64,000 nucleotides of DNA. Origin: an uncultured Calditrichaceae bacterium. GTDB lineage: Bacteria > Zhuqueibacterota > Zhuqueibacteria > Oceanimicrobiales > Oceanimicrobiaceae. Where the stretch lies: NCBI GenBank assembly GCA_964455375.1, contig CAYVXE010000003.1:2522-66521 (forward strand). Reading direction: 5' to 3'. Below, piece after piece: positions 8,869 through 37,340 of the stretch; the stretch's first letter is position 1; each line of letters opens with the position of its first letter. Position numbers and translations under genes: made by a program. The notes beneath the pieces were generated by a model, which was not told the DNA's origin, did not search any database, and was given only the letters and a program-made list of their open reading frames with translations.

Positions 8869-8890
8869 AAAAAAACCTCCCGTTAAAAAT

Positions 8891-9934: not shown

Positions 9935-10071
9935 GCAAAAATCTCAAAATATTTCACGTTTACTATCGATCAAAATCGACGGTATTTCATTATAAATTAA
10001 CTCGAAGATAGTGATTTTTCCCTTGTTTGTCAAGCAAAAACTATTTGTGATAAATTAAGTTAAATTCATAA

Positions 10072-10941: not shown

Positions 10942-11588
10942 TTCAACGTCCTCCCTTTGTTTATGGAAACGACTCTTTTGTCTGCTTGATTAACCAACTC
11001 GTAATTGTGGGTTGCCATAAGAATAGCGGTTCCCCGAGCATTTACTTTTTCCAGAATATTCATGATTTCCACGGTTGTTTTCGGGTCCAAGTTTCCGGTT
11101 GGTTCATCGGCTAACAGAATGAGCGGGTCGTTTACAATCGCCCTGGCAATTGCCACCCGCTGCTGCTCTCCACCCGACAATTCAAACGGCATTTTACGAC
11201 TCTTGTGGCTTAAGCCAACTTCTGCCAGCGCTCTGAGGGTTCTCTTCTTAATGTTTTTTCTGCGGACACCCGTAACCTGCAAAGCAAACGCTACATTTTC
11301 AAAAATATCTCTATCTTCTAAAAGCTTGAAATCCTGAAAAATGATACCAAGTTTCCGGCGACAATACGGAATTTCTTTTTCCTTAATTTCCAGTGAATTA
11401 TAATTATTGACAATAACCTGGCCAACCTTGGGAAATTCTTCCATATAAACAAGCTTCAGAACCGTACTTTTACCTGCACCTGTTGGCCCCACTAAAAAGA
11501 CAAATTCCCCTCGTTTTACCTCAAGGTTTATCAACGTCAAGCCATCGCCATTGGGGTATTTCATTTTTACATTTTGAATTTTAACCAT
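10938..11588 (-). CDS. ftsE: Cell division ATP-binding protein FtsE
   Basis: 216 aa ABC ATPase. Walker A GPTGAGKST, signature LSGGEQQR, Walker B ILLADEPT. Confidence 0.9.
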   Translation of the reverse strand: MVKIQNVKMKYPNGDGLTLINLEVKRGEFVFLVGPTGAGKSTVLKLVYMEEFPKVGQVIVNNYNSLEIKEKEIPYCRRKLGIIFQDFKLLEDRDIFENVAFALQVTGVRRKNIKKRTLRALAEVGLSHKSRKMPFELSGGEQQRVAIARAIVNDPLILLADEPTGNLDPKTTVEIMNILEKVNARGTAILMATHNYELVNQADKRVVSINKGRTLN

Positions 11589-11627
11589 GTTTATTCCAAA
11601 TCATAAATCATTTTATGTGCCGATAAA

Positions 11628-12404
11628 TCAACGACATTTTCTTAAAACGAAATGCACCCTTTCAGAGTTTTCCGTACCCGCTTCAAAAGAAAATCCATCA
11701 TATTTTCCAACCAAAATAAATTTGTCAGACGGTATCATTTTAATAAATTCATCTAAGCTGTAGATTTTTTGTTTATGGATTTCCCGATAACTTTTCTGTG
11801 GCTTATTAAACCATTGAATCGTAAACTCATTTGATTGAATTTTTTTTATGGGATCGAAAACAGATTGACGAATATACCCATATTCTTTGGTTTGCTCATT
11901 ATCATAAAAATTTCTAAAATGTTTCATGGAATTTTTCTTTGTACAAACATCAAATATAAACAAACCATCACGCTTCAAAACCTCATTGACACATACAAAA
12001 ACCGCTTCACAGGATTGCACCGTTGTGCAATAATTAAAACTGTCATACGTACAGACAACCGCATCATACTGTCTTTTTGTGGAAAAACGCTGCATGGAGC
12101 CTTGCCAAACAGGAACGGGAAAACCGAGTTTATCTAACTTTATTGAAGCCTGCCTGACCATAGGAGCAGATTGATCAAACCCCGACAGACGGTAACCCAA
12201 TTGGGTCAATTTGATCGCCAGCGACCCGGTTCCACAAGAAATATCCAGAATATCCTGTACACTGCCTTGCACATAAACAAATAATTCTGCCAGGTGCACC
12301 GCCCAACGACCATAATCAACATGGCGCATAACAAAGTCGTAAATGAGTGCTAATTGTGAATACGGCTCAACATCTTCAGGTGTTCGTAACCATTTTGACA
12401 GCAA
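11628..12404 (-). CDS. Class I SAM-dependent methyltransferase
   Basis: 258 aa. Motif I LDISCGTGSLAIKL. Substrate unknown. Confidence 0.65.
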   Translation of the reverse strand: MLSKWLRTPEDVEPYSQLALIYDFVMRHVDYGRWAVHLAELFVYVQGSVQDILDISCGTGSLAIKLTQLGYRLSGFDQSAPMVRQASIKLDKLGFPVPVWQGSMQRFSTKRQYDAVVCTYDSFNYCTTVQSCEAVFVCVNEVLKRDGLFIFDVCTKKNSMKHFRNFYDNEQTKEYGYIRQSVFDPIKKIQSNEFTIQWFNKPQKSYREIHKQKIYSLDEFIKMIPSDKFILVGKYDGFSFEAGTENSERVHFVLRKCR

Positions 12405-13383
12405 CTTTAATCGCCTCCTTCATACTACCGGCGTCAGCCTTACCCGTGCCGGCAATATCGAATGCTGTTCCATGGTCAGGTGAGGTTCGAACCACAGGCA
12501 AGCCTGCAGTATAATTGACCGCCTGCCCAAAGGAACGCATTTTTAACGGAATTAACCCCTGATCGTGGTACATTGCAAAATATAAATCAAATGCATTTGG
12601 GGTTGCCGTTGAAAAGATTGTATCTGCCGGGTAGGGACCCCATACGTTCAGACCCTTTTTGTTTGCTGCGTCAATCGCTGGACGGATCACATCTATTTCT
12701 TCCATACCAAACAGACCATTTTCTCCGGCGTGCGGATTCAGCCCTAAAACTGCAATTTTTGGATTTTTACGTAACAAACGCTTTTTTAAATCCCTACTTA
12801 CGGTAACTAATTTGTTCAAAAGCATCTCTGTGTTAATTAGATGTGAGACGTCAGCTAATGCACAATGCGTCGTAGCCAGCCCGACTCGTAAATGTTCACT
12901 CATAAGAACCATAACGACGTCTTTAGCCGACAGCCGGTCGGCCAAAAATTCTGTGTGTCCGGGGAAACGAAAACCGGCCAGATTAAACGACTCTTTTGAA
13001 ATAGGCGCTGTCACCAGAGCTGCGGCAGCATTGCTGCGAACCAGTTCCACTGCATTTTCCAAAGCTTTGCCGGCAATGATTCCACCCGCTCTTGATATGA
13101 TTCCCGGGGTTATTTCATGCAAATCACCGACTTTGAAATCCATCACCCACAATGTTTTCTCGTTGATTGGCCTAGCCTTTAAAATATCCATTTGAGTCAG
13201 TTTTTGCAAAGAACAGTCGCCTCCGACGCTTTTTTTTGCTTTTTCCAAAACGGACACCGGCCCACAAACGACAAAATTCGCCAGTTTCTGAATGTCATGA
13301 TCCATAAAAGATTTCACGATTATCTCAGGGCCGACGCCACACGGGTCACCAAGACTAAAAGCAATGAGCGGTAATTCTTTCAT
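12376..13383 (-). CDS. pdxA: 4-hydroxythreonine-4-phosphate dehydrogenase PdxA
   Basis: 335 aa. LIAFSLGDPCGVGPEI N-terminus and GHTEFLA metal-binding motif. Confidence 0.9.
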   Translation of the reverse strand: MKELPLIAFSLGDPCGVGPEIIVKSFMDHDIQKLANFVVCGPVSVLEKAKKSVGGDCSLQKLTQMDILKARPINEKTLWVMDFKVGDLHEITPGIISRAGGIIAGKALENAVELVRSNAAAALVTAPISKESFNLAGFRFPGHTEFLADRLSAKDVVMVLMSEHLRVGLATTHCALADVSHLINTEMLLNKLVTVSRDLKKRLLRKNPKIAVLGLNPHAGENGLFGMEEIDVIRPAIDAANKKGLNVWGPYPADTIFSTATPNAFDLYFAMYHDQGLIPLKMRSFGQAVNYTAGLPVVRTSPDHGTAFDIAGTGKADAGSMKEAIKVAVKMVTNT

Positions 13384-14222
13384 CCGGATTGTTCCGGTTT
13401 TTTAACCATAATAAACGATCGCACGCCTTCTTTCACAAGCAAGCAAAGTACCGTATTTAATTTCAGCAGGGAACAGCACTTATAAATACCCAGGCTTACT
13501 TTGTCCAAAAGTTTTTTATTCACAGTATGCAGTTGTTTACTCCTAATAAGGCGCCGGTTCAGTTGATCCACAATATGGAAAAACACCACTGGAATCCGTG
13601 TAGAATACTTCACCTCTTTTTCAAAGGTTCCTGCTCGCAAGACAATAAAACCGGCATTTTGTGCAAATTCACTCAATTCCTCGGGACGAAATGCCGTGTG
13701 AAAATATCTCCCGTTCTGAACACCGGAAATGCCGAAATCCGCCATCTCACCAACATCTATCCACGTGGGTTTCACTTTTTTATAATTGGGGGTCGTTAAA
13801 AGCATTTGCCCGCCGTTTTTCAAAACACGGTAACATTCCCTGAAAACCGCTACCGGGTCCGGAACATGTTCAAGCATTTCCGAACATAAGATTGAGTTGA
13901 TGGTAGATAATTTTAAAAATGAAATGTTTTGTGCATCCCCTTGAATGAAGAATTGATTTTTATTGCGTCTTTTTGCCATCTTCAATACAGCAAAGGATAA
14001 ATCGACGCCAACGGCAGGGCCATTTTTATAAGCGGATGTATAGTAGCCCCGGTTACAACCGAGATCTAAAAAACATCCGGCGGCTGTTTTTAACCAAGAG
14101 AGAATGAATTGGCGGCGAACAATACCCCGTAAAGAATGAAACACAAAATCCTCTTCAGGATAGTTCCTTCCCACGAGCTCATAAAAATCTTTGTAATTTT
14201 CCTTTTTAAATGCCGTTTCCAC
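13380..14222 (-). CDS. Class I SAM-dependent methyltransferase
   Basis: 280 aa. Motif I FLDLGCNRGYYT and motif post-I. Second methyltransferase flanking pdxA. Confidence 0.65.
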   Translation of the reverse strand: METAFKKENYKDFYELVGRNYPEEDFVFHSLRGIVRRQFILSWLKTAAGCFLDLGCNRGYYTSAYKNGPAVGVDLSFAVLKMAKRRNKNQFFIQGDAQNISFLKLSTINSILCSEMLEHVPDPVAVFRECYRVLKNGGQMLLTTPNYKKVKPTWIDVGEMADFGISGVQNGRYFHTAFRPEELSEFAQNAGFIVLRAGTFEKEVKYSTRIPVVFFHIVDQLNRRLIRSKQLHTVNKKLLDKVSLGIYKCCSLLKLNTVLCLLVKEGVRSFIMVKKPEQSG

Positions 14223-14301
14223 AAGATATCTAAAAGAATAATTCCATCCTCATTTTATTTCATTATAAGAAAGTTCTCAACGAGGATCAATAGTTGCTCA
14301 C

Positions 14302-14333
14302 AAAAAAGCCTCACAGAAAGAAATCTGTGAGGC
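14302..14333 (-). terminator. Rho-independent terminator downstream of TPR gene
   Basis: Minus-strand reading is GCCTCACAGA-tttcttt-TCTGTGAGGC followed by TTTTTT. Perfect 10-bp stem plus U-tract. Confidence 0.6.
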
Positions 14334-14361
14334 TTACCTATAAAAAATTCAAAGATACGCT

Positions 14362-15771
14362 CTATTTAACAATCACTAGCGCATCGACTTTACCCGCTTT
14401 CACGTAAACATTGAGAGGCTCTTTCACCGTAAGCTTTCCCTTTTTGCCGGGTTTAAATATCCACTCTTCAACGTCTTCAAACTGGTTAGATTCCAGGGGC
14501 TTCACATCATCCGGTGACCCGAGAATTGTTTTTAGTAAATCTCCCTGCATCCCAACAATCACTTTATCATCCAAAACACTTTTTACGGGCTCACCTTTTG
14601 CAAATGCATATCCGGCCAAAGAAATTTTATTCAATTGTCCGGCGATTCTTCCCAAAGTAAACCAGACATTTTCGTCATCCGGGTTCGCTTTTACCGATTT
14701 TTCCAGATAAGGAAGAGCAGATTTAAAATCCGCAAGATATGATTTGTCTTCAGAGTCTTCGGGTAATGCCTCGCGTTTGCCAACAGCACGGTTCAAAAAG
14801 GCCGCACCGAGATTATAGTTAAGGTCGGGTGAACTTGAATCCAGTCGACTCGCTTGTTGTAACTGCTCAATGGCTCCATCATAATCCTTTGCTTCAAGCA
14901 AGATCGTCCCATAATTATAGCGAAACTGAAAATTAGCCGGATTCAGCTCAATTGCATCTTTATATATAGCTTTTGCTTTGTCTATTTCACCTGCACGGAC
15001 ATAGGCACGTGAGAGGTTATCCGCAACCTCCTCGGTTTTTACATTACCCTGCCACAATTCTTCAAGAATGGGTATTGCAAGGCTGTCTGCTTTGCTTGCC
15101 ATATAAACCTGCGCAAGCATGGTTTTTACTTCATTATCATTTGGTTGGTACTGCAATGCTAACTTTAGAGGTTTTACACTGTCTGCATACCGTCCGAGAT
15201 TAAGCAAAGCCGCGGCCCAATTACGGTAAGCAAGTGTACTATCTGGCATAATCATGGCGGCAACCCGGAATGCTTCAACCGCACCTTCGTAGCTCTTGTT
15301 TCGGGATGAATCATCCGCGGCATTTACGGCACTATTAAAAAACTTAACACCTGAATTAAATGAATTTCCCCAGACGATTTTCAAAATGAGACTTGTACCA
15401 AATTTTGAAAGAAACTGGGTGCCCGAATCTTTGCTAATTTTGATGCCTTTGTCCTTAAACTTTGGTTTCAGTTCAACCGCTTTGTTGAACGCTTCGACCA
15501 TTTTATCATATTTCTTCTGGCGAGCATAGATGTAACCCAACAAATACCAGGCATCTTCGTTATTGGGGTTTACTTTTTCAATCTCTTTGTGTAACGCCTT
15601 TAACGCCTGTTGCAAATCGTTTTGCTGAATATAGAGCTTTGCGCCGCTGACATTCGGCCCCCCACCTTTAGCTAAAACGATGGAATCGTTCCAAAACAAC
15701 GTTCCCAATACTAAGCAAACCGTCAACAGACTTGACAACGATTGCCTGCCAATTAAACGAAACTTTCGCAT
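14362..15771 (-). CDS. Secreted tetratricopeptide-repeat protein
   Basis: ORF runs to 15843, but the signal peptide starts at the internal Met (MRKFRLIGRQSLSSLLTVCLVLGTLF...), so the start is trimmed to 15771. Multiple TPR-like helical repeats (AWYLLGYIY..., LAYRNWAAALLNLGRY...). Confidence 0.65.
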   Translation of the reverse strand: MRKFRLIGRQSLSSLLTVCLVLGTLFWNDSIVLAKGGGPNVSGAKLYIQQNDLQQALKALHKEIEKVNPNNEDAWYLLGYIYARQKKYDKMVEAFNKAVELKPKFKDKGIKISKDSGTQFLSKFGTSLILKIVWGNSFNSGVKFFNSAVNAADDSSRNKSYEGAVEAFRVAAMIMPDSTLAYRNWAAALLNLGRYADSVKPLKLALQYQPNDNEVKTMLAQVYMASKADSLAIPILEELWQGNVKTEEVADNLSRAYVRAGEIDKAKAIYKDAIELNPANFQFRYNYGTILLEAKDYDGAIEQLQQASRLDSSSPDLNYNLGAAFLNRAVGKREALPEDSEDKSYLADFKSALPYLEKSVKANPDDENVWFTLGRIAGQLNKISLAGYAFAKGEPVKSVLDDKVIVGMQGDLLKTILGSPDDVKPLESNQFEDVEEWIFKPGKKGKLTVKEPLNVYVKAGKVDALVIVK

Positions 15772-15944
15772 GTCTTTCCTCCTGGATTCATTTACTTTAA
15801 ATTTAAAATCAACAAACATAATAATTATCTTCCATGAAGTCAATAAAAAAACTTGCCTCAGAAAAAAAGTATTTTGGTATATTTTACTTCAAGGACGGTG
15901 AAATGGTTCAATTCCGCATCTTTTCAATAGACGCTTTGTTTCAA

Positions 15945-16958
15945 TTATTTGAGGGTTGGACGAAAATGATCAAAGCCCTGGGCCGCCAAAGGTGCTGCTC
16001 TTTCCCCGTCAATCAGCATGACTCCTTTATCCAGCGACGTTATTTTTCCAATATTCGAACATTGAAGATTGAACACTGTTTTCAATTCTCGAATAATAGA
16101 TGTGCTTTCTGACTTGGGAGCGGTAAATAACAGCTCAAAATCTTCACCGCCATAAAGAGCATAGCTCAGTGGTTTGGCTCCCTGCATCTCCGCAATGTTT
16201 CTCGCTGCCGCAGAAAGCGGAATTTTATCGGCGTAAAGCCGTGCCCCCACATCGCTGCTTTGACAAACATGTCCGATTTCCGAAGCCACACCGTCACTTA
16301 CATCGATCATCGCGTGAATATGAAAGTTTTCCACCAAATGCCGCGCTTCGCGCACGCGGGGTTGCGGGGTTCTATGCTGTTTCACGGCCTCAGGAAATTT
16401 TTCAAGCAAAGACGCCCGCTGTAATTTCAGAATCTCCAGACCGGCAATTGAATTGCCGGGGCTACCGGTGACTAAAACAGCATCTTCTTCCCGGGCGCCA
16501 GACCTTAAAACAAGACGCTCCCGTTCGACGCGTCCGTAAATGGTTAATGAAAAGAACAATCGATCCGGCGTGCGTGTGGTATCGCCGCCAATAATATCAA
16601 CACTAAACTGTTGGGCGATCCCCGACATGCCGCGGTAAAAGTCATCCACGGCGCCAACGGTAAGGTCATCGCGCAGAGCAACGGTCAACACAGCATATTC
16701 AGGTATGCCGCCCATTGCCGCGATATCGCTTAAGTTGGCCGCAAGCAGGCGCCAACCCACGTCGTGAAAAGACATATATTTTAGGTCGAAGTGAACACCT
16801 TCTACAAAAGCATCGGTGGTGAGCAGAGATAATTGTTCGTGTGCTTTAAAGACCGCGGCATCATCATTGATGCCGACCATGAGTTCTGAGGAATGGGATG
16901 CGAGCTTTTTTTTCAAACGACGAATGAGGCCAAACTCGCCCAGATCTTTTAGAATCAT
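15945..16958 (-). CDS. thiL: Thiamine-monophosphate kinase
   Basis: 337 aa. LGEFGLIRRL start and the DDAAV and GGDTT motifs of the AIR-synthase-related/PurM-like fold typical of ThiL. Confidence 0.85.
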   Translation of the reverse strand: MILKDLGEFGLIRRLKKKLASHSSELMVGINDDAAVFKAHEQLSLLTTDAFVEGVHFDLKYMSFHDVGWRLLAANLSDIAAMGGIPEYAVLTVALRDDLTVGAVDDFYRGMSGIAQQFSVDIIGGDTTRTPDRLFFSLTIYGRVERERLVLRSGAREEDAVLVTGSPGNSIAGLEILKLQRASLLEKFPEAVKQHRTPQPRVREARHLVENFHIHAMIDVSDGVASEIGHVCQSSDVGARLYADKIPLSAAARNIAEMQGAKPLSYALYGGEDFELLFTAPKSESTSIIRELKTVFNLQCSNIGKITSLDKGVMLIDGERAAPLAAQGFDHFRPTLK

Positions 16959-16965
16959 TTGTCTG

Positions 16966-17358
16966 TCACGAAAGGGTCACTAAAACGCGGCGGGTTCGCG
17001 GACCGTCGAATTCACAAAAGTAAATCGACTGCCAGGTGCCAAGCAGCAAATTGCCATTTTGAACAAAAACAGCCGCAGAAGAACCCATTAAACTGGCTTT
17101 AATATGTGCGGCTGAATTGCCTTCCGCATGCCGGTAGCCGTCATCAAAAGGTACGATTTTATTAAGTTCCATGATCATATCGCGCCACACATCGGGGTCG
17201 GCACCTTCATTGATGGTTACGCCAGCCGTTGTATGCGGAATATAAATATGACAAACACCATTTTTAAAATCATTTTCGGAAATGATTTTCTGAACATGAC
17301 TGGTGATTTTTGCAAACTCCACCTGTCGCTCGGTACGAATTGAAAATTCCTTTAGCAC
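16966..17358 (-). CDS. YjbQ/UPF0047 family protein (secondary thiamine-phosphate synthase-like)
   Basis: 130 aa. CHIYIPHTTAGVTINEGADPDV and the C-terminal block match the YjbQ family. Adjacent to thiL. Confidence 0.75.
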   Translation of the reverse strand: MLKEFSIRTERQVEFAKITSHVQKIISENDFKNGVCHIYIPHTTAGVTINEGADPDVWRDMIMELNKIVPFDDGYRHAEGNSAAHIKASLMGSSAAVFVQNGNLLLGTWQSIYFCEFDGPRTRRVLVTLS

Positions 17359-17471
17359 CCCGTTTCTCCATTAAAAAAACAACGTTTTTACTTTCTGAAC
17401 AAAATAGAAGAAATGCCGCATAAAAGTCAAGAAGAAATGGATTTTATAAAACTTCAATCATACCGCACAAA

Positions 17472-18755
17472 TTAGGTTTTACGTTTCTTCTTTTTTGCAG
17501 CGGGAAATAGAATATTGTTCAAAATCAAGCGGTAGCCGGGTGAGTTTTTATGCAGCGATAGTTGCGTTGGCGGGTCATACACGTAGTGCTGATAATCTTC
17601 AGGGTCGTGACCACCGTAAAACGTAAACGTTCCGCGACCTAGATTGCCGTGAAGGTATTTTACTTCCTCGGTTCCTTCCATTTCCGCTAAAATAGTGACA
17701 GATTTCTTGATTAAACTCTTTTTAAATCCCGTGGTTTGTCCCATAAATCCTTTGATAACAGACACATGGTTTTGTGTTAACATCGTGGGCACCGGATCGT
17801 ATTTTGCCGAAAATTCAAACAACGTGAAGAAATCTGCATCGGCACTACGAATACGGGGCATGTTACTTGGCGGGAAATCGATATCCGAATGTTCATAAAC
17901 CAACGGGTTAAACTCCGGGGTAAAATTCTCAAAGGCAAGGGTTTTCGAATAGTCCAACATTGCCAGTGCATTCGAAGCCACCGGATCGCCATCAAAAACA
18001 GCCGGGACAATATCGGTCTTTTCTGCCGCAAAAGCTAAATCAATCGTATCTGTTGCAGAACACATAGCAAACAGAAATCCGCCACCCGCCACATAATTTT
18101 TAATGGCCCGGGCAACGGCCTTTTTTTCTTCCGACACTTTTGAGTAACCGGTTTTTTTCGCCATAGCTTCATTTTTCACGACCTCCTCAATATACCAGGA
18201 AGCATTTCGAAAATTCGCATAAAACTTTCCATACTGACCCGTAAAATCTTCATGGTGCAGATGCAGCCAGTCGTACTTTTTTAAATCTCCATCTAAGACA
18301 CCTTCATCCCAAACAGTTTTGTACGGGACTTCTGCATAGGTTAAAGCCAGAGTAACGGCATCATCCCAAACCTGTTTGTTGGGTGGCGTATAAATGACGA
18401 TCCTGGGAGCTTTCTCCAATAATACAACATCCATGTTTTGCTGCTCGATTTCAGCATAAATTTGTGCGGCCTGTGCGCCAGAGATGTTTGAAAAAGCAAC
18501 TCCCCGCAAACGCAGCTCCCGCTCAACCGCCGGATAATAGTCCATCATAAAAGAGCCGCCGCGATAATTCAGCAACCATTCTACGGGAATGGCACGCTGA
18601 AGAGCCCAAAACGCCACACCGTACGCTTTTAAGTGATCGGTCTGTTTTAAATCCATGTTGATAAGGATTTTTTGGGCAAAAACAGTCGTTACATTGTACC
18701 CGCAAAATAAAATTAACAAACCGAAAAAAAGCGAACGAAGTTTTTTTGCTTTCAT
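17472..18755 (-). CDS. Secreted hypothetical protein with class-I glutamine-amidotransferase-like (ThuA/DUF4159-like) core
   Basis: 427 aa with signal peptide. Motif LHLHHEDFTG...YVAGGGFLFAMCSATD parallels LFMTGHGKISFS...YLLAGGFLYADDDYG of the 24002-24679 protein, so the two are paralog-like. Confidence 0.45.
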   Translation of the reverse strand: MKAKKLRSLFFGLLILFCGYNVTTVFAQKILINMDLKQTDHLKAYGVAFWALQRAIPVEWLLNYRGGSFMMDYYPAVERELRLRGVAFSNISGAQAAQIYAEIEQQNMDVVLLEKAPRIVIYTPPNKQVWDDAVTLALTYAEVPYKTVWDEGVLDGDLKKYDWLHLHHEDFTGQYGKFYANFRNASWYIEEVVKNEAMAKKTGYSKVSEEKKAVARAIKNYVAGGGFLFAMCSATDTIDLAFAAEKTDIVPAVFDGDPVASNALAMLDYSKTLAFENFTPEFNPLVYEHSDIDFPPSNMPRIRSADADFFTLFEFSAKYDPVPTMLTQNHVSVIKGFMGQTTGFKKSLIKKSVTILAEMEGTEEVKYLHGNLGRGTFTFYGGHDPEDYQHYVYDPPTQLSLHKNSPGYRLILNNILFPAAKKKKRKT

Positions 18756-18767
18756 ATCGCGCGGAGC

Positions 18768-20600
18768 CTAATTGTTTAATGTTCTTTTTTCCAAACGTCT
18801 GAGACGGTAGCGGACGTCTTCTGTATAAATCGAAGAGGGATAATTGATCAGCACTTTTTCAAATGCTGACGCTGCCTGTGGAAAATTGGCAAGCCCATCC
18901 TCATATACCTCGCCGATACGTTTTTGGGCAAATGCATTGTAGACGCTTTCCGGGTGCTTTTCCAGCAACGTTTTTAGATAGACAATCGATTTGCCGAACT
19001 GTTTTTCATTATATTCCAGCTCAGCTAATTCGATGAGTGTTTTTTCTTCGAGATTGGAGTTTGGGTGTTTTTCAAGAATTGACTGAAAAGCTGCCATGGC
19101 TTTCCGCGGGTTCCTCCGGTACAAAAATCGCCGGGCTTCACTAAACAACTCCAAAGCCTGGTTATCTTTTTTTATATTATCTTCAATGAAAAACATCAAC
19201 TCGAGCGCGTCATTGGCGAAGGTTTGATCTTGCTTTGTGTTTGTAAGATTGCCTGTAACCTTTTTCAAATAGGAAAGCGACTCATCATAATTACCCTTCA
19301 GGAAATCCGCATAGGCTTTTTTATAGTTCACCCGCTCTTCCAACCCGGCATTGGCATTGTTTTGAATAATCGCCCGCCCATACCACGCTTTTGCCTTTTC
19401 CATATCTCCAAGAACAACGTAACAATCACCAATACGAAAGTAGACATCTATGCTGTTCCTCCCATGGGGGTAGTCCTGAATAAACCGATGATAAGCAGTC
19501 AAAGCCCTGGGTATATCAAACAAATCAATCTGGAAAATGATCCCTATTTGGTAAGCCGCGTCTTCTGCCCACGGTGATTTCTGATTCGTTGCTATGAGCG
19601 ACTCATAACTGTTTAACGCGTCCCGGGTGAAACCTTGCTTTTGTTTTGACAAAGCGAACCCATAGAGTGCACGCAAACGATAAGGAGAGTGTCTGTATTT
19701 TTCCAAAATGAGATTAAAGCCTTTCTCTGCATACCGGTAATCTTCGGACTGTAGCGCCTTTTCTGCAAAAAAATAAATTTCTTTCCCATTTGTGCCGTTT
19801 TGCGACTTAAGATAGTCTTTGTTCGTTTCAAGCTGTTTAAATTTTTCAAATGCAAGATCGAAGTCCCGATTCCGCAAATACAAATCCGCAAGCAGCTTGT
19901 CGATTAAATAGGGTTGACGCGCTTTTTCCCGTTTCGATTTCAAGATTGCCGCAACTTTACGGGCTTGTTCTGCATCCTTTGTATAGGCAGCAATGCGCCC
20001 TTCGATGTAGTTAAATTGAGCAGGCGACGTTTCCAAATAATTAAGGTACTCATCGGTGGCATCATTATATTTTAACCTTGCAATGTACATATTCGCCAGT
20101 TCGAAAACAAACGCATTGGGCTGCTGCAAATTTATCCGTGCTTTTTTGTACAAGTTGATGGCTTCATCATACAAACGATTGCTTACCATGGCGCTGGCCA
20201 CATAGGTGTAGGTCGATTTTTTTTGCGGATATTCATCTACAACCTCATTCCAGACCGCCTTTGCTTTTTCATGTTCCCCTTGTTTGTAATACACATTGCC
20301 CAAGTCGGCATGATACTTTGCATCGTTTGTGCGGGCTATTTGAGCATTAATTGTTTCGATGAGCCGTTCATAGCGTTTCAGGCGCAACATGTTCCGCTTA
20401 ACGCCTTCATAATACAACTGGTTGCGTGGAACCTGGTTGAACAACCCGAGAAAAATCCGCAATGACAATTCGTAATTTCCGCGTCGCTCATAATCCTGAG
20501 CCAGTTTGATACGGCTTTTGTCTATTCGGGACTGAGCCCACATACCATTGACGGAAAACAACAAGAGCAGCGCCAAAATGCCGGCAATTTTTTTGTGCAT
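18768..20600 (-). CDS. Secreted TPR-repeat protein
   Basis: 610 aa. Signal peptide followed by about 12 TPR-like repeats (W/LG/Y spacing, AxxxY...). Confidence 0.7.
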   Translation of the reverse strand: MHKKIAGILALLLLFSVNGMWAQSRIDKSRIKLAQDYERRGNYELSLRIFLGLFNQVPRNQLYYEGVKRNMLRLKRYERLIETINAQIARTNDAKYHADLGNVYYKQGEHEKAKAVWNEVVDEYPQKKSTYTYVASAMVSNRLYDEAINLYKKARINLQQPNAFVFELANMYIARLKYNDATDEYLNYLETSPAQFNYIEGRIAAYTKDAEQARKVAAILKSKREKARQPYLIDKLLADLYLRNRDFDLAFEKFKQLETNKDYLKSQNGTNGKEIYFFAEKALQSEDYRYAEKGFNLILEKYRHSPYRLRALYGFALSKQKQGFTRDALNSYESLIATNQKSPWAEDAAYQIGIIFQIDLFDIPRALTAYHRFIQDYPHGRNSIDVYFRIGDCYVVLGDMEKAKAWYGRAIIQNNANAGLEERVNYKKAYADFLKGNYDESLSYLKKVTGNLTNTKQDQTFANDALELMFFIEDNIKKDNQALELFSEARRFLYRRNPRKAMAAFQSILEKHPNSNLEEKTLIELAELEYNEKQFGKSIVYLKTLLEKHPESVYNAFAQKRIGEVYEDGLANFPQAASAFEKVLINYPSSIYTEDVRYRLRRLEKRTLNN

Positions 20601-20618
20601 ATTTCAACTCATATTATG

Positions 20619-23600
20619 TCAATTGCTTAGCGTTCCCTGAGCCTGTTCTTTGGCCAGGGCGTCAAAATACTTTTGGATAAGTTCACGGTAGTCTTTTGAA
20701 TATCCTTCTTTAAGTGCTTTTAAGAGCTCACTTTTTAAACGGATAGACTCTGTCCGGCCAAAATCCGGAAGCGCGCCCGGACTCAAAGCTTGCACCTGTT
20801 TTCCGGTTTTAGCCCGACGCTTATTGCTGAAATCTCTGCTATGCATGGACTTTTGCGCATCCAACAGTCGGGACAAGATGTTCTTCTGCCGGTCAATCGT
20901 TTTTCGGTTCACATTTTTGCGCATGAGATCATTCACTACATCGGCCATTTCGTTCCCCACCTTTTCCAGGTCGCCGAGGATCTCCGAACGGTTTTTGTAT
21001 TCCTTATTTAATTGTTCGAGCGATTTCCGCAGTGCTTCCTGTTGTGCCGCCAGGCGTTGCATAGCAGCGCCCTGTTCCATACTCATGCCCGGCTTCTGAC
21101 CCAGCTCGGATGTTTGCTGGTTGAGACTTTTTTGCTGGCCGGAAATTCCCATGAGCTGCTGCATCATTTCCTGGAAACCAATCCCCGATGAGGCGCCGCT
21201 CATGCTCTGCATGGAATTATGAAGCTGTGAAACGGCTTCATTCAGCCCTCCCATGGCCTGTGCCTGATTTCGCGTTGTTCTGCTGGAATTTCTCGCTTCA
21301 TATTGCTGCAACGCTTTCTGCATTCCGCTGATTGATTTACCCAGTGCCTGCCCAATTTGCGGTGTAATAAAAAACGTCTCTTGCGAAAGGTCATAGAGTT
21401 GGTTTGTCACTCGGGAAAGTCCCGAGAGTAAATTTTCCTGCTCATCTGCCAATTCGGTCATGCCCGGCGTGTTCCGGTCTGTCCCCTCGGTCTTTTTCAT
21501 CAATGCTTCTTGGCGTTTTGACAGATTTAACAAGTCGTTGGAAGAGCGCTTAAACGCCTGCATGAGTTTCTGTTTCTCCTTTTCCGTCATCTGCTCTTTT
21601 GCAGACTGCAACGATTGCAGCATTTGTTTTAGATTCTGAGAAATCTGTTGCCCGGATTGCTGAGCATTTTGCATGTCGCCGGACTGAAACTGATTTGCCG
21701 CCTGCTGCATCTGCTCCTGTAGTTGCGCCCCCGCCTGTTCTTTGGCTTTTTGCATGTCTTCCTGCGGCATCTGCGGAAATTCTCCCATCTGCTTTGAAAG
21801 TTTCGTTAAATCCTTTTCGAGGCTTTGAGTGTCTTGTTTGATTCCCTCTTGATCTTTGGCGTATTTTTCCGATTTCTTTGTATTTTGGGATTCGCCAGCC
21901 TGCTTGTTTAACGCTTCCTGGCGCCGAACAAGTTCCTGCGCTTTTCGCACCATTTCATCCATTTTCTGCTCAATTTGCAATTTCTTCAGTAAATTCACCG
22001 TCCGCTCCATTCCTTTCAAAAAGTCTTCCTGGGACTCAGACAGTTTCTTTACCGCTTCCTGAAGCTTTTGCGGATTCAATTGGTCCATTGACTTTTGCAA
22101 TTCGGCGAGCGCCTTTTTCAAATCTTCCGTGAGCAGCTCTTGCATCAATTGCTGTAACTCACGATATTTATCCAATGTTTCCTGAGAAAGCAAATCATTC
22201 TGCTCCAGTCGGTTAACCATCTCATCCAACTTATTTTGCAACTCCTGCACTTTCTCCTGCACTTTCTCCTGAGCTTGAACCGCATCCTGAATCTTTTGTT
22301 TTTCCTCCCAATTCAGGTCTGGATTGCGCTTCATTTGCTGCACAGCATTATCGAGAGTTGCTTTGAGTGATTTACTTTCCTCCACAAGACTTTTTAACTC
22401 ATCATACGTCTCATCCTGACTCTCCGCAACTTCGTCAAAAATCTCATTCATGGAAGGCAACCGAACGCGGTATTCTTCACTTTTGGCGCTTTTGGGTCCT
22501 GAAACGTCGTCATTATCGAAAACCTCGGCGAAATAACTAACGACATCTCCGGGAGAGAGGCCGTAACCGCCAAGGCTCCAGTTATGATTAACTAATATTT
22601 GATCAGCAGAAGGAGATGGCAGTGGTAGTTGGAGAACCTGTTCTTCTTTAGCTTCAAATCCGCCGCTTAAAACCTGAAATCGCAATCTCAATTGTGAAAA
22701 ACCAAAATCGTCTTGTGCTTCAATACTTAACGGTAAAATCATATCCTTGCCGAGATCAACATCCCGTCCCGGAAAAGCAATTTGTACAAAAGGTATCTGA
22801 TCGGCAATCGTCTCGATGCGATAATTTATTGGAGAATCGTTGGTAAGATGTAATTGGTCTTGCAAAAAAATCTGATAGCTGCCGCTTTTGTTGAGGACAA
22901 ACTGCCCGGAAAGTTCCTGTCCCGAATGTTTGAGCGAGACATTTTTCCCGTCGTTAAATCGAATACTCGCATCGGAAACCGGTTTGTTTGACAACAGCTT
23001 CAACGTGACTTTTGAGCCACGTAACGCAGAAATATCCCCGACATTTTCATCCAAATACTGTGTCCCCAATTTCGAGTATTCCGGAAATGAAATACTCGCC
23101 TGCAAACTGCGGACAAACGGTCGTTCAACCACAGAAATGGCGTACGTTTCCGTTTGTTGTTTCCCTTTTCGAAAATAGTATTCCGTCTCTTCCTTAATCG
23201 CCGGGATCGTATAAACAAACTGGTTCTGGTCAGATGAGGCAAGTTTAATCTCTTCGAATCTTTCAGCAGATGTTTTCTTTAAAAACAATCCTATCTCCGA
23301 CCCCTCCAGTCCCGAAACAAACGCTTTTATTGGAACATCGTCCCCTTTCACGGCCTGATAGTTACCCGGCGCTACTTTAATTGTTACGACCGGCCCGGCA
23401 TTAAATTCCCGAAACGGATGGCTTAACCTAAACGCGGCGTCTTGCAGTGTAACCGGGAAGAGAGCAAAAACCACTACACATAAAACGGTAAATCCTGCCA
23501 CGGGTTTTAACCAACGAATAACTTTTTGACGGTCGGCCACATCACAAAAGTTGATGTTTTTCGTTTCAGAAAAAATCGACTCAAGAGAAGCATTCGCTAA

Positions 23601-23993
23601 TTCCCTTGAATGACTTCCTGTGCCACGACAACTTTCCCGATAAACTTGCAGCGCGTCTGCCAAGCGGTCCTTTATCTGTGAATGAAACTTGCCAACTTTT
23701 AACGCCAGGACAATATCATCCGGTTTTTTTTGTTTTAAAGCCATTAATATCAATGGTTTAATTACAAACCATATTAAAGAAAAGAACAATGTGAGTAAAC
23801 TGAATACGGCCAAGACAGTCCTGATTGGGGATGAAAACCGAAAAAGTGATTCAAATAAAGTCGACAGTACCGACAGAACCACGATGATGAGAAAGCCAAT
23901 AAGCAGGCCCCGCAAAAGGCTAAACTTTTTTTCGCGTCGGCGTAATTTCGCCAGACGGTCTACCAGACTTTTATATTGTTGCTCAACCTTCAT
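20619..23993 (-). CDS. Large membrane-anchored coiled-coil protein (double-TM N-terminus, possible DUF4175-like)
   Basis: 1124 aa. Two N-terminal TM helices and a third near residue 170, a beta-rich middle region and a roughly 450-aa K/E/Q-rich coiled-coil C-terminus. The family name comes from recalled architecture and was not checked. Confidence 0.55.
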   Translation of the reverse strand: MKVEQQYKSLVDRLAKLRRREKKFSLLRGLLIGFLIIVVLSVLSTLFESLFRFSSPIRTVLAVFSLLTLFFSLIWFVIKPLILMALKQKKPDDIVLALKVGKFHSQIKDRLADALQVYRESCRGTGSHSRELANASLESIFSETKNINFCDVADRQKVIRWLKPVAGFTVLCVVVFALFPVTLQDAAFRLSHPFREFNAGPVVTIKVAPGNYQAVKGDDVPIKAFVSGLEGSEIGLFLKKTSAERFEEIKLASSDQNQFVYTIPAIKEETEYYFRKGKQQTETYAISVVERPFVRSLQASISFPEYSKLGTQYLDENVGDISALRGSKVTLKLLSNKPVSDASIRFNDGKNVSLKHSGQELSGQFVLNKSGSYQIFLQDQLHLTNDSPINYRIETIADQIPFVQIAFPGRDVDLGKDMILPLSIEAQDDFGFSQLRLRFQVLSGGFEAKEEQVLQLPLPSPSADQILVNHNWSLGGYGLSPGDVVSYFAEVFDNDDVSGPKSAKSEEYRVRLPSMNEIFDEVAESQDETYDELKSLVEESKSLKATLDNAVQQMKRNPDLNWEEKQKIQDAVQAQEKVQEKVQELQNKLDEMVNRLEQNDLLSQETLDKYRELQQLMQELLTEDLKKALAELQKSMDQLNPQKLQEAVKKLSESQEDFLKGMERTVNLLKKLQIEQKMDEMVRKAQELVRRQEALNKQAGESQNTKKSEKYAKDQEGIKQDTQSLEKDLTKLSKQMGEFPQMPQEDMQKAKEQAGAQLQEQMQQAANQFQSGDMQNAQQSGQQISQNLKQMLQSLQSAKEQMTEKEKQKLMQAFKRSSNDLLNLSKRQEALMKKTEGTDRNTPGMTELADEQENLLSGLSRVTNQLYDLSQETFFITPQIGQALGKSISGMQKALQQYEARNSSRTTRNQAQAMGGLNEAVSQLHNSMQSMSGASSGIGFQEMMQQLMGISGQQKSLNQQTSELGQKPGMSMEQGAAMQRLAAQQEALRKSLEQLNKEYKNRSEILGDLEKVGNEMADVVNDLMRKNVNRKTIDRQKNILSRLLDAQKSMHSRDFSNKRRAKTGKQVQALSPGALPDFGRTESIRLKSELLKALKEGYSKDYRELIQKYFDALAKEQAQGTLSN

Positions 23994-24001
23994 TTTGACC
24001 C

Positions 24002-24679
24002 TCAGTTGGTCAGAGCGTAAACGATGATGTTCGTTCCCATTTCAAATGCTTTTTGCCGGATATTTTCAGGATCTCCGTGGACTTCCGGGTCAGCCCACCC
24101 ATCTGAAATATTTGTATCGAATGTATAAAATACGACCATTCGCCCATCGTGAAAGATTCCGTAGGTTTTCGGAGGGCCGCCGTCATGTTCGTGAATTTTG
24201 GGAGAGCCGCTGGGAAAATTAAAGTGGTTATGAAAAATTTCGTGAGAAAACGGAAGTTCAACTAATTTTTTATCCGGAAAAACTTTTTTAATTTCTTCAC
24301 GAAAAGACTTGTCCATTCCATAATCGTCATCAGCATACAAAAATCCACCTGCAAGTAAATACTTTCGTAATCGTTCGGCTTCACTTTTTGAAAAAGAAAT
24401 TTTTCCGTGGCCGGTCATAAACAACACGGGATAGGAAAATAACTCCTCATCACTAATTTCTACGACCGTTTGATCCTTTCCCGTAGTTATATTCGTATTT
24501 TTTTTCAGAAAACTCAACATATTAGGAATAATAGAAGGATCATTGTACCAATCGCCGCCGCCGCTGTATTTTAAACGCGAGATTGTGAAATCACCGCTGT
24601 CCGTTGTTGGTTGAGCAAACCCAGCGGTAACATAAAGCAAAAGTAAAAAAAGACGTAGCATTTTCGGTTTCATTAGCAA
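24002..24679 (-). CDS. DUF4159-like secreted protein (GATase1/ThuA-like fold)
   Basis: 225 aa. Signal peptide and motifs YPVLFMTGHG...LLAGGFLYADDDYG. Downstream partner of the giant TM protein. Confidence 0.5.
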   Translation of the reverse strand: MLMKPKMLRLFLLLLYVTAGFAQPTTDSGDFTISRLKYSGGGDWYNDPSIIPNMLSFLKKNTNITTGKDQTVVEISDEELFSYPVLFMTGHGKISFSKSEAERLRKYLLAGGFLYADDDYGMDKSFREEIKKVFPDKKLVELPFSHEIFHNHFNFPSGSPKIHEHDGGPPKTYGIFHDGRMVVFYTFDTNISDGWADPEVHGDPENIRQKAFEMGTNIIVYALTN

Positions 24680-24749: not shown

Positions 24750-25259
24750 TTAATAAATTCTAAATCCTACCATAACAACCATGGCGACTGCCACCGCTAT
24801 TTTGGTCAGTTTACCACCGAGAGATCCGAGAAAAGCGCCAAAACCAACACGCAATGCTTTATCAAAGTCCTTTGTATTCATATATTCAAAAAGTGTTGCG
24901 CCGACAAATGCACCGGTGAAGGCTCCCAAAAGAGTTCCGATGACAGGAAGGATCGGTGTTCCCCAAATGGCCCCTAAAAATCCACCCAAAATAGCACCAA
25001 ACATACCCTGTTTAGACGCACCATATTTCCCGGCTGTTGCGGCTCCGATAAAAAACTCTACCCCTTCCATAATGATGGCAATGAGTAGCAGCAAACCTAG
25101 AAAACCCCATGAAATTTGAACAAAATGTGTCAGCAGAGCAAAAATAAATGCATTTGCCACAATTAGGAATGTTCCCGGAAGTCCGAGTGGAATAAGGAAC
25201 AGACCGGTAAGCATAATCACCCAAAAAATAATATGTCCGATTATTTGAAGTAAAATCAT
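24750..25259 (-). CDS. DUF456 family membrane protein
   Basis: 169 aa. Four TM helices and a G-rich GxxxG segment (GAILGGFLGAIWGTPILPVIGTLLGAFTGAFVGA) typical of DUF456/YqaE-like proteins. Confidence 0.6.
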   Translation of the reverse strand: MILLQIIGHIIFWVIMLTGLFLIPLGLPGTFLIVANAFIFALLTHFVQISWGFLGLLLLIAIIMEGVEFFIGAATAGKYGASKQGMFGAILGGFLGAIWGTPILPVIGTLLGAFTGAFVGATLFEYMNTKDFDKALRVGFGAFLGSLGGKLTKIAVAVAMVVMVGFRIY

Positions 25260-26539
25260 CAGGTTTTAATCTGAATGTAGACGTCCTTCTTTATTTTCTC
25301 AACCCATTTTTCAAATTCTTTTCGTTGCTTAAGATCCAGCGCCCATTGTTCAATTTGTTCCCAATCGTCTTTAATGTTGAGTTTGCGAGCTTTTTTTCGA
25401 TCTTCCAACAGGATCAAATGATAACCAAATTTGGTTTTTAGAGGATCGGATATCTCACCCTCTTTTAGTCCTACCACCGCTTGTTTAAAAGCTTTAATTT
25501 CGAACTGATCAACATCGAACCAACCGAGTTCTCCACCCTTTTCCGCTGTGGATTTATCCTTCGAGTACTTTTTTGCAGCGTCTGCAAAGGATATTTCACC
25601 GGCTTCAATCTGTTGTCTTAATTTATTAAGCCGTTCAACCGTAGCGACGGCATCATCCGGAGATGTGTCTACCCGGAGGAGAATATGACGCACGTCTATT
25701 TTTTCGCCGACTTTTTTCTTAAGTTGAATGATATGGAGGCCAAATTGCGTTCGGACAATTCCAGAAATTTCACCAGGATTAAGATTGAAGGCGACTTCTT
25801 CGAACTCTTTAACCAGATCGCCACGAGACATCAAGCCGAGCTCCCCACCTTTTGGAGCGGACGGACCCTCAGAATATTTTCGAGCCAGTTCGCCAAAATC
25901 TTCGCCTTTTTTTAACCGTGCCAGCAGCGCGTCCGCTTTTTTTCTGGCTTCAGCCATAGCTGCCTCGCTCGGTTCAATGTCTACTAAAATGTGCCTAAGT
26001 TTAACAGACTCGTTTACCTGAGGCAAACTATCCCGGAAAGTATTGTAAAATCGCTCTACTTCCCGCCTGGAGATTTGTATTTCATGGGCCTTTTGTTCCC
26101 TCAGGCGCTGCACCAACAATCTTTCCTTAACCTCATCCCGGAAGTCCCGTCGAATCTCACGAATTGTGGTGCCAAAATACTCTTCGACTTTCTGTTCCGA
26201 GCCCAATTGCTGCACCATGCCCTGAATCTGCTGGTCCAAAACGGCATCAATCTGTTTGTCGCTGACCTCAACACTATCTTCTTTCGCCTTCACAAGCAAA
26301 ACTTTCTGAATGATTAAATTCTCCAGCGTTTGTTTCATCAGACGCTGAAATTTTGCGGGTTCCTTTTGAACATCAATACCCATTTGCAAAGCTGTACTAT
26401 ACGAAAACTGCTCAAGTTCAGATTTAAGAATGATGTTATCATCCACAATCGCGATGATTTTATCCAGCGGGGTCTGAGAAAAAAGATTACCCGAGATGAA
26501 TAAAACAAGCATTATAACTATGTGCTTAACGTGTTTCAA
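25259..26539 (-). CDS. SurA-like periplasmic chaperone / peptidyl-prolyl isomerase (parvulin domains)
   Basis: 426 aa. Signal peptide, SurA N-terminal-like domain and PpiC/parvulin motifs (FGLHIIQL.., HILL..). Start overlaps the preceding gene by 1 nt. Confidence 0.7.
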   Translation of the reverse strand: MKHVKHIVIMLVLFISGNLFSQTPLDKIIAIVDDNIILKSELEQFSYSTALQMGIDVQKEPAKFQRLMKQTLENLIIQKVLLVKAKEDSVEVSDKQIDAVLDQQIQGMVQQLGSEQKVEEYFGTTIREIRRDFRDEVKERLLVQRLREQKAHEIQISRREVERFYNTFRDSLPQVNESVKLRHILVDIEPSEAAMAEARKKADALLARLKKGEDFGELARKYSEGPSAPKGGELGLMSRGDLVKEFEEVAFNLNPGEISGIVRTQFGLHIIQLKKKVGEKIDVRHILLRVDTSPDDAVATVERLNKLRQQIEAGEISFADAAKKYSKDKSTAEKGGELGWFDVDQFEIKAFKQAVVGLKEGEISDPLKTKFGYHLILLEDRKKARKLNIKDDWEQIEQWALDLKQRKEFEKWVEKIKKDVYIQIKT

Positions 26540-27402
26540 TTTACTTTTTCTCCTTTATTCAATAATGAATCCAGTGTTGCGGCATTGAGAAGTTGGAAAT
26601 TAGTCTGTATTTTGAATTTACTTTTCGTTTGCAGCAAAAAGCGCTGATATTTTTCCCGTTTTTTCTTCGTGGTTAATTTTAAACGAATCTCTTCTTTAAC
26701 CGTCTCAAGCTTTCTTTCATCACCTTTTTTTAGTTTGTCAAGGACAAACAAAACATGATAACCATAATTAGACTTGATCGCTCTCGTAAACCGGCCGGGG
26801 CGGACGTTAAAAACCACATTTGCAATTTCAGGAATGACATCCCCTCTCACAAAATAACCCCAATCCCAATCATCGATCTTTAGAGAGTCTCCAAAAACAG
26901 CTTTAATAATTTCAGGGAATTTCTCACCATTTGCAAGGCGTCTGCGGAAAACATTGGCGGCTTTAGTGGTTTTAAACAAAGCATGGTACGCTTTTACCAT
27001 ATCCTCTTCCAAAATAAAACTGTCTTTATTGTTTTCATAATAGGTCTTTATTTCATCTTCGGAAACCGAAATGTTATTTCCGATAGCAGTTTCAATTAAT
27101 TTACTCACTAACAATTCTTTGCGTAATCTTTCAACTTGTTTTTGCAAATCAGGACGCTCATCAAAACCTCGCTTGTCTGCTTCCTGATAGAGTACTTCAT
27201 TATTAATCCATTGCAGAACCAATTCACGGATTTCAACATCTGAAAGATCGTGCCGTATTTGAACGGGAATATCTTCGATTAAATCCGTTAAGGTCAGGGT
27301 TGCTTTACCCACTCTGGCGATGACTCTCTCATTTTCGTTTTGCTTCTTACAACTTATCACGAACAACAAAACAACACATGCTATCAGTAACCCTTTATTC
27401 AA
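26536..27402 (-). CDS. Peptidyl-prolyl cis-trans isomerase, parvulin/SurA-like
   Basis: 288 aa. Lipoprotein-like signal (VISCKK) and parvulin core (SNYGYHVLFV). Co-operonic with the previous PPIase and mfd. Confidence 0.6.
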   Translation of the reverse strand: MNKGLLIACVVLLFVISCKKQNENERVIARVGKATLTLTDLIEDIPVQIRHDLSDVEIRELVLQWINNEVLYQEADKRGFDERPDLQKQVERLRKELLVSKLIETAIGNNISVSEDEIKTYYENNKDSFILEEDMVKAYHALFKTTKAANVFRRRLANGEKFPEIIKAVFGDSLKIDDWDWGYFVRGDVIPEIANVVFNVRPGRFTRAIKSNYGYHVLFVLDKLKKGDERKLETVKEEIRLKLTTKKKREKYQRFLLQTKSKFKIQTNFQLLNAATLDSLLNKGEKVN

Positions 27403-33358: not shown

Positions 33359-33413
33359 TTTTTATAAATGGTTTAATTTTTCCAAGACAAAATGTTTCAC
33401 GTGAAACATTCAA

Positions 33414-34811: not shown

Positions 34812-34849
34812 CTTAAGTAATTATAAATTAAAAACTTAAATAAAATAAA

Positions 34850-34885
34850 ACCGCCCCACAAAAGAAAAAGGGGGGCGTTTTTATT
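34850..34885. terminator. Bidirectional-looking GC hairpin terminator between yidC and mnmE
   Basis: CCGCCCC-acaaaagaaaaag-GGGGGCG followed by TTTTTATTT on the plus strand, with A-rich 5' flank giving a U-tract on the minus strand too. Sits downstream of yidC (minus strand). Confidence 0.55.
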
Positions 34886-34926
34886 TCGACTCGTAAATTT
34901 ATTGTATCTATCTATTTCTTTTTCGC

Positions 34927-36732: not shown

Positions 36733-36768
36733 GAATTTAAATATACCCTATTTATTAAATAACTAATT

Positions 36769-36978
36769 CTAGTTTAATGGATCATACCCCCCTGGATGAA
36801 ACGGATGGCACTTTGAGAGCCTCGTTAATCCCTTAACGGAACCGCGAATTAACCCATACTTTTCAATTGCCTGTAAAGTATATTCCGAACAAGTAGGATA
36901 AAAACGGCAAGACGGTGGAAAAAACGGCGAGATCGCTTTCTGGTAAAGCCGAATGATGCCAATTCCAATACGTTTCAT
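36769..36978 (-). CDS. yidD: Membrane protein insertion efficiency factor YidD
   Basis: 69 aa. [25 protein letters not shown] is the YidD/haemolytic-domain signature. Confidence 0.85.
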
Positions 36979-36984
36979 AATAGG

Positions 36985-37323: not shown

Positions 37324-37340
37324 AAAATTGCTTTGGTGGG

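Follow-up and report, generated by a model that had tools for sequence, protein, structure and literature searches.

Layout of the four-gene cluster

We analysed a 64,000-nucleotide stretch of DNA from an uncultured Calditrichaceae bacterium (contig CAYVXE010000003.1 of assembly GCA_964455375.1, positions 2,522 to 66,521 of the forward strand; hereafter the window), in which four neighbouring genes encode a DUF4159 protein, a DUF4175 protein, a tetratricopeptide-repeat (TPR) protein and a 427-residue protein, here called p427. Comparison of gene order across genomes shows that the cluster consists of two separable conserved gene pairs, DUF4159 with DUF4175 and TPR with p427, which are joined in some lineages and do not form one conserved unit.

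The layout described in a first-pass annotation of this DNA is real: the list of open reading frames (ORFs) holds four minus-strand frames of 225, 1124, 610 and 427 codons in their order of transcription (Table 1), with gaps of 8, 18 and 12 bp inside the cluster, 70 bp upstream to a DUF456 gene and 113 bp downstream to yjbQ. All four ORFs are genuine genes, because homologues of their products score down to E=0; the names of the close homologues are those of metagenome-assembled genomes assigned to candidate division KSB1 and Calditrichaeota. The four extracytoplasmic proteins are probably co-transcribed. Their export is predicted from the sequences, with signal peptides called by eye and by a hydropathy scan.

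Table 1 Genes of the cluster and features of their products, in window coordinates.
Feature	Coordinates	Strand	Evidence
DUF4159 protein, 225 aa	24002..24679	-	PF13709, PDB 4i66 match, conservation map, hydropathy
DUF4175 protein, 1124 aa	20619..23993	-	PF13779, homologues, hhalign to Gemmatirosa homologue
DUF4175 residues 1-190, basic N-terminus and three hydrophobic segments	23424..23993	-	Kyte-Doolittle scan, family consensus
DUF4175 residues ~204-511, three tandem Ig-like beta-sandwich domains	22461..23384	-	Structure model
DUF4175 residues ~515-1124, Q/K/E/L-rich helical region (~600 residues)	20622..22451	-	Model, composition, consensus
TPR protein, 610 aa	18768..20600	-	TPR_6, TPR_2 and YfiO matches; TIGR02795 and TIGR03302 scores
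p427, 427 aa	17472..18755	-	ORF list, family alignment, predicted fold
p427 loop HHEDFTGQ, residues 167-174	18234..18257	-	Conservation; after third strand (163-166) of GATase-like domain
p427 elbow GGGFLFAMCSATDT, residues 224-237	18045..18086	-	Conservation, DSSP, hhalign/BLASTP motif matches
p427 GGHDPED, residues 381-387	17595..17615	-	Directly after strand 375-380; conservation
p427 C-terminal polybasic tail AAKKKKRKT	17475..17501	-	Alignment, tail counts

The DUF4159 and DUF4175 proteins

The first two proteins are ordinary members of known, uncharacterised families, to which the first-pass annotation had related them. The smaller one matches the DUF4159 family PF13709 over profile positions 2-202 of 202 (E 1.4e-65, 221 bits against a cut-off of 25.9) and, at E 6e-10, PDB entry 4i66 (Hoch_4089 of Haliangium ochraceum), the single solved member of the family; DUF4159 is placed by Pfam in the class-I glutamine amidotransferase (GATase) clan on structural grounds (PMC4702930). 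The window protein has a GATase1-like fold with an aspartate at the elbow position (GGFLYADDD), contains no cysteine anywhere and starts with a signal peptide (residues 1-22) that would be cleaved between GFA and QP. It has no feature that sets it apart from the rest of the family, and its gene directly adjoins that of DUF4175 rather than that of MoxR. Its true start is probably the ATG at 24673, giving the 223 residues called by the Joint Genome Institute; the TTG start gives 225. The protein would serve the DUF4175 stalk as a non-catalytic partner.

Another DUF4159 gene, whose product is 45% identical to the window protein, lies on plasmid pCRULAC1 of Corynebacterium crudilactis (NZ_CP015623.1, locus 11968-12585), where it adjoins a dihydrofolate reductase gene and both are enclosed in a multi-resistance region rich in IS26 and Tn3 (aph, aac, sul2), an unusual setting for it; it may have come along from a chromosome outside the actinobacteria.

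The 1124-residue protein matches the DUF4175 family PF13779 at residues 296-943 (E 2e-21, 76.2 bits against a cut-off of 27.3). Its hydrophobic segments lie at about residues 28-50, 58-84 and 163-187 in the Kyte-Doolittle scan, so that the N-terminal membrane anchor of the first-pass annotation stands, with three segments in place of the double-helix hairpin given there. Between the second and third segments the family consensus has a conserved loop, FPxIxDRLxNxLQL, which would be cytoplasmic according to the positive-inside rule. The beta-rich middle that had been noted is modelled as three immunoglobulin (Ig)-like domains, the third with the invariant acidic motifs DDFG (428-431) and DND (493-495), after which, from model residue 326, a helix begins. 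The long, low-complexity helical region that follows, predicted to be extracytoplasmic, matches coiled-coil and helical-bundle chains only weakly and has a conserved C-terminal block, ILSRLLDA...KYFEAL.

A tie of both families to MoxR/Bat operons, also part of the first-pass annotation, is seen directly on plasmid 1 of Gemmatirosa kalamazoonensis, a megaplasmid (NZ_CP007129.1 731724-756383), which we reached by tblastn of a plasmid collection; the matches listed for DUF4159 by the homologue search were all close relatives. Here, a co-oriented run of six genes (locus ~8369-20890) has the order TPR/Peptidase_MA, DUF4159, MoxR (AAA_3), DUF58, BatA+VWA and a 1268-aa DUF4175 homologue. The DUF4175 family of the window aligns with this homologue at hhalign probability 100 (E 5e-40, residues 9-526), and the two proteins are alike in having transmembrane segments at the N-terminus, then three Ig-like domains and finally a long tail of helix. 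A second DUF4159 match was obtained by tblastn elsewhere on the same plasmid, whose copy in the PLSDB record has no annotation.

As had been remarked, no MoxR ATPase or von Willebrand factor A (vWA) gene accompanies the pair here: a scan that covered 47 of the window's 51 ORFs with 150 aa or more detected no AAA_3, DUF58, BatA or VWA domain, the other four being mnmG, rsmG and two overlapping ORFs, which were read or left aside. Also, no additional genes lie between DUF4159 and DUF4175 in any locus with all four genes. The window has a version of the Bat-like operon whose two outer genes have become neighbours.

The TPR protein

By its sequence, the third protein is a TPR scaffold of a generic kind, predicted to be periplasmic. 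The signal peptide expected for a secreted protein is present at residues 1-22 (MWA before QS), with no lipobox cysteine, and matches to TPR_2, TPR_6 and YfiO reveal repeated modules of the CpoB/YbgF and BamD/YfiO types. Scores against TIGR02795 for CpoB/YbgF (89.8 bits, cut-off 90.1) and TIGR03302 for BamD/YfiO (80.2 bits, cut-off 81.4) are summed over repeats and hence indicate a shared repeat type, not orthology. Compared with CpoB/YbgF and BamD/YfiO, the window protein is 2-3 times longer and lacks the lipoprotein cysteine; identity with BamD or CpoB itself was rejected on its length, the missing lipobox and the summing of scores over repeats. A Dyadobacter orthologue is collinear with the window protein and matches the TPR profile at E 4e-92.

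p427 defines a sequence family within a well-known fold

The p427 family is a sequence family new within a well-known fold and has no family model. Neither the protein nor its family profile has a significant match in Pfam, NCBIfam (E <=0.01) or PDB sequences, against which the family profile gives chance-level matches only, and no profile match to p427 at E <=0.01 comes from ThuA (PF06283), GATase1_like (PF07090) or other Pfam families of the clan. The predicted model has a GATase1-type flavodoxin-like alpha/beta fold, in agreement with Foldseek. After a signal peptide (residues 1-27, VFA before QK), the chain is laid out as an extra N-terminal alpha/beta domain (~29-113) followed by a ThuA/class-I-GATase-like domain (~117-420).

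Three stretches of the second domain are nearly invariant among 98 family members from many phyla, over which conservation was counted, with strands and helices taken from DSSP on the model. The loop HHEDFTGQ (H168 in 97/98; D170, F171 and G173 in all 98) may be equivalent to the position that lines the active site and oxyanion region in class-I GATases. The elbow stretch has G225, G226 and M231 in 98/98 and C232 in 97/98; Cys232 (codon 18060-18062) is placed by the model between a strand (227-231) and a helix (233-243), that is, at the 'nucleophile elbow' position. Finally, GGHDPED (H383 97/98, D384 96/98, P385 98/98, E386 95/98) resembles the His-Pro-Glu motif of class-I GATases, which in the true TrpG of Dyadobacter reads ...GVQFHPES.

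The C-terminus of p427 appears to be exchangeable. By consensus, the family ends in a polybasic tail, A[KR]KK[KE]xKT, which in at least six homologues, from some Bacteroidota, is replaced by PF18962, a sorting domain for type IX secretion (T9SS); some homologues are named 'T9SS type A sorting domain-containing protein' by NCBI. In the window protein the last residues are AAKKKKRKT, and neither a Pfam hit nor a C-terminal T9SS sorting domain (PF18962 / TIGR04183) is present. Because homologues carry T9SS sorting domains, as support independent of the signal peptides, we place the family outside the cytoplasm.

The closest structural matches of p427 are ThuA-like proteins, the GH42 middle domain, STM3548 and the GIFT domains of IFT52 and OST48. 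Compared with the ThuA-like/GATase1-like/GH42-middle group (4jqs, 1t0b, 3rht, 2gk3), to which its identity is 9-13% with no Pfam hit, p427 has in addition the N-terminal domain, a large insertion (~244-330), a signal peptide and the polybasic tail, as well as the conserved Cys/His/Glu set that most domains of this group lack. The class-I GATases and clan PC enzymes HisH, PabA/TrpG, Pdx2, PurQ and gamma-glutamyl hydrolase have no detectable sequence or profile similarity to p427; they are cytoplasmic, whereas p427 is predicted to be exported, and no synthase partner is evident for it. Judged by its sequence, p427 is distinguished by export, the N-terminal domain, the large insertion, a catalytic-looking site and swappable C-terminal tags.

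The first-pass annotation had described p427 and the DUF4159 protein as paralogues with a shared motif, alike in kind. The two do belong to the same superfamily, with a GATase1-like fold in each, and have one 16-residue motif in common, which lies in the elbow stretch of p427; close paralogues they are not. Pairwise BLASTP gives E 9e-5, with 27% identity over 89 aa, and the profile-profile comparison (hhalign) aligns only 16 columns, ARAIKNYVAGGGFLFA against AERLRKYLLAGGFLYA (P 0.0012, probability 19%); a global alignment of the two family profiles failed, leaving this local match. We found neither significant domain-wide similarity nor mutual best structural matches. The proteins also differ in kind, since p427 keeps Cys, His and Glu at the putative catalytic positions, whereas the DUF4159 protein has Asp at the elbow and no Cys.

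Gene order across genomes

To place the cluster in context, we scanned one genome per species for relatives of p427, which gave at least 597 loci; 80 were kept, with record titles from Ignavibacteria, Kapabacteria, Calditrichaceae, Neomarinimicrobiota, Latescibacterota, Zixibacteria, Eisenbacteria, Krumholzibacteriota, Cloacimonadota and Pedobacter. With profiles built from the window proteins, the complete set of four was found in unchanged order at ~16 of these 80 species-level loci. The recurrence of gene order that the first-pass annotation had asked for is therefore found, in ~16 other genomes, and the single multi-protein unit gives way to two separable pairs.

The remaining loci weigh against a single four-protein complex. 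TPR and p427 genes occur without DUF4159 and DUF4175 in 28/80 loci, and p427 alone in 32/80, some of them on short contigs. Caldithrix has the order lepA-lepB-hemN-TPR-p427-yjbQ, lacking DUF4159 and DUF4175, and in Ignavibacteria clpX stands between the TPR and p427 genes (for example in an Ignavibacterium sp., locus coordinates 8672-9931). In four Pedobacter species the p427 gene is found by itself, with 10 kb of upstream sequence available. Conversely, DUF4175 homologues of Bacteroidota are solitary and directly precede ybeY-mnmG (Dyadobacter 10001-15852; a second locus, 10001-15961), and the Dyadobacter TPR orthologue is 5.5 kb beyond its DUF4175 homologue. Because the modules separate so freely, these neighbourhoods argue only weakly for a complex of all four proteins.

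The position of the solitary DUF4175 homologues suggests an old linkage of DUF4175 and mnmG. In the window, mnmG lies ~7.5 kb upstream of the DUF4175 gene. About a dozen Ignavibacteria loci have the TPR and p427 genes at the same distance of ~1.3 kb.

The four proteins differ in how strongly they are conserved: against eleven four-gene loci, identity is 59-77% for p427, 43-67% for DUF4159, 26-42% for DUF4175 and 20-31% for the TPR protein. For an exported protein, ~60% identity from one phylum to another is a very high value. This sequence pattern fits p427 as a putative constrained enzyme with fast-evolving scaffolds better than it fits p427 as a scaffold.

A proposed two-module explanation of the cluster and its alternatives

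We propose that the cluster joins two modules, a Bat-like stalk module without its ATPase beside a TPR scaffold and thiol enzyme distributed across the Fibrobacterota-Chlorobiota-Bacteroidota (FCB) superphylum. As a whole, this explanation is tentative, and we judge it slightly less probable than an even chance. The first module would comprise DUF4159 and DUF4175, the two outer genes of the MoxR-DUF58-BatA operon, here without ATPase and vWA genes. The DUF4175 protein would be anchored by three helices in the inner membrane, with its Ig-like domains and helical stalk of ~600 residues reaching into the periplasm, and the DUF4159 protein would serve as the small, soluble and non-catalytic partner of this stalk. 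The second module would be the periplasmic TPR scaffold together with p427, the pair that is found across the superphylum. Using Cys232, His383 and Glu386, p427 may act as a thiol-dependent amidohydrolase or acyl-transferase on an envelope substrate; we take it to be a thiol-dependent enzyme because of its fold and because these residues fall at the positions of the class-I triad. Its polybasic tail could hold it against an anionic surface, and in some Bacteroidota its destination would instead be the cell surface, by way of the type IX system.

Within KSB1 and several of its sister phyla, the stalk and the TPR scaffold would position this enzyme in the envelope, a step that we base on the two modules forming one tight operon there. 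The joined operon suggests cooperation at the envelope, and this is the weakest step of the explanation. The shared strand and tight spacing of the four genes support this explanation.

Several further points weigh against the two-module explanation. The candidate triad Cys232/His383/Glu386 has sequence conservation and secondary-structure position as its sole basis, hhalign of the p427 family profile with a genuine TrpG gave no meaningful alignment (probability 0.3%), and the best structural matches of p427 are mostly non-catalytic. Scans for promoters and terminators gave results no better than chance. In the literature we found no study on DUF4159 or FCB-type DUF4175 proteins, and the one mention of AdvA concerns a short N-terminal match in Acinetobacter only.

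The main alternative is that the four genes do not work as a unit: they would be two or three independent housekeeping envelope genes or gene pairs, adjacent through gene order inherited within a long co-oriented run close to the replication origin. This agrees with the loci in which p427 or the TPR-p427 pair stands apart, with the interposed clpX gene of Ignavibacterium, with the Caldithrix order, with the lone DUF4175 genes and distant TPR orthologue of Bacteroidota, and with the setting of the window cluster amid mfd, surA, thiL, pdxA and ftsEX, ~14 kb from dnaA. However, the exact order is kept, with gaps of a few bp or overlaps, in the ~16 species-level genomes, whose labels name five or more candidate phyla (Neomarinimicrobiota, Latescibacterota, Eisenbacteria, Krumholzibacteriota and KSB1-like), an unusual persistence for unrelated genes, and all four products are predicted to be extracytoplasmic. 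We lean against this alternative, while regarding it as a serious one.

In a second alternative, p427 would bind or scaffold without being catalytic, in the manner of the ThuA-like, GH42-middle and GIFT domains (IFT52, OST48, GldG), and its Cys/His/Asp/Glu cluster would hold a metal or ligand instead of forming a catalytic triad. Non-catalytic members of the fold have usually lost the elbow cysteine, as the co-encoded DUF4159 protein with its Asp illustrates, but p427 sequences keep it almost without exception, along with an H-(D)-P-E motif in its canonical position, and the identity of p427 between phyla exceeds what is usual for a pure scaffold. On balance, we think a non-catalytic module less likely than not.

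The cluster could also be one part of a split Bat/MoxR system, with MoxR, DUF58 and BatA-type vWA proteins encoded elsewhere in the genome acting together with DUF4159 and DUF4175, and the ATPase remodelling or inserting the stalk complex. The co-oriented Gemmatirosa run, where MoxR-DUF58-BatA is bracketed by DUF4159 and a genuine homologue of DUF4175, speaks for this, but the domains concerned are absent from the scanned window ORFs, and DUF4159 and DUF4175 adjoin each other with no additional genes between them in the four-gene loci; we think a split system less likely than not.

That p427 is an asparagine synthetase B, as many NCBI records of its family are named (for instance homologues of window 17472-18755), is almost certainly wrong, since no asparagine synthase or class-II amidotransferase model of Pfam or NCBIfam matches it at E <=0.01, since it has a signal peptide, a predicted class-I/ThuA-like fold and, on some homologues, T9SS sorting domains, and since it is only 427 residues long against ~554 in E. 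coli AsnB. The name looks like a propagated misannotation. We found no study of the p427 family in the literature; an 'asparagine synthetase B' reported in a paper on Bizionia could not be tied to it.

Returning to the two-module explanation, its implications differ between the modules. DUF4159 and DUF4175 are widespread in MoxR/Bat envelope operons, and a cluster that has the pair without neighbouring ATPase genes narrows down what the pair needs. The p427 family, present in at least several hundred species, matters more than this pair. We suggest, with reservations and as something we would not yet bet on, that p427 represents an unrecognised family of extracytoplasmic cysteine hydrolases or transferases with a class-I amidotransferase fold, possibly a new family of clan PC, which is near-universal in the FCB superphylum, is mislabelled, has interchangeable C-terminal tags that are polybasic in most phyla and type IX sorting domains in some Bacteroidota, modifies a conserved envelope component with its TPR partner and, in KSB1-like phyla, is coupled to an ATPase-less Bat-type stalk. 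If p427 is an enzyme, it would act on something that the envelopes of Bacteroidota share with those of their relatives. At the least, the 'asparagine synthetase B' misannotation should be corrected.

Genomic surroundings of the cluster

The cluster is part of a co-oriented housekeeping run, in which mfd, two SurA/PpiC-type chaperone genes and DUF456 precede the four genes and yjbQ, thiL, a TPR protein gene, a methyltransferase gene, pdxA, ftsE, ftsX, hrcA, grpE and dnaJ follow them. DUF456 was considered as a member of the cluster and rejected, being upstream of it in only one other locus. An Rfam scan of the window detected no RNA element, nor in particular a riboswitch in the 113 bp that precede yjbQ-thiL.

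At a distance of ~14-20 kb from the cluster, mnmG-mnmE-yidC and dnaA-dnaN-recF-gyrB-gyrA meet at the site where the GC skew changes sign, the former three genes on the minus strand and the latter five on the plus strand. A likely replication origin is inside the window, within 31478-46547, with a GC content minimum of 35% at ~36-40 kb.

The genes for SurA and PdxA are adjacent in the lptD-surA-pdxA operon of E. coli. In the window, the SurA-like genes (25259-27402) and pdxA (12376-13383) are separated by ~12 kb, in which lie the four-gene cluster, yjbQ-thiL and the other TPR protein gene. This second TPR protein (493 aa, 14362-15843, minus strand), encoded just downstream of thiL, has an N-terminal hydrophobic segment, and MamA, its top match in NCBIfam, scores 113 bits where the cut-off is 200.

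For five sizeable ORFs of the window, Pfam gave no match at the thresholds applied, namely 46613-47932 (plus strand, 439 aa), 54345-55973 (minus, 542 aa), 53751-54308 (plus, 185 aa), 3636-4766 (minus, 376 aa) and 5774-6664 (minus, 296 aa); the last two flank a PilM-like gene (4790-5749).

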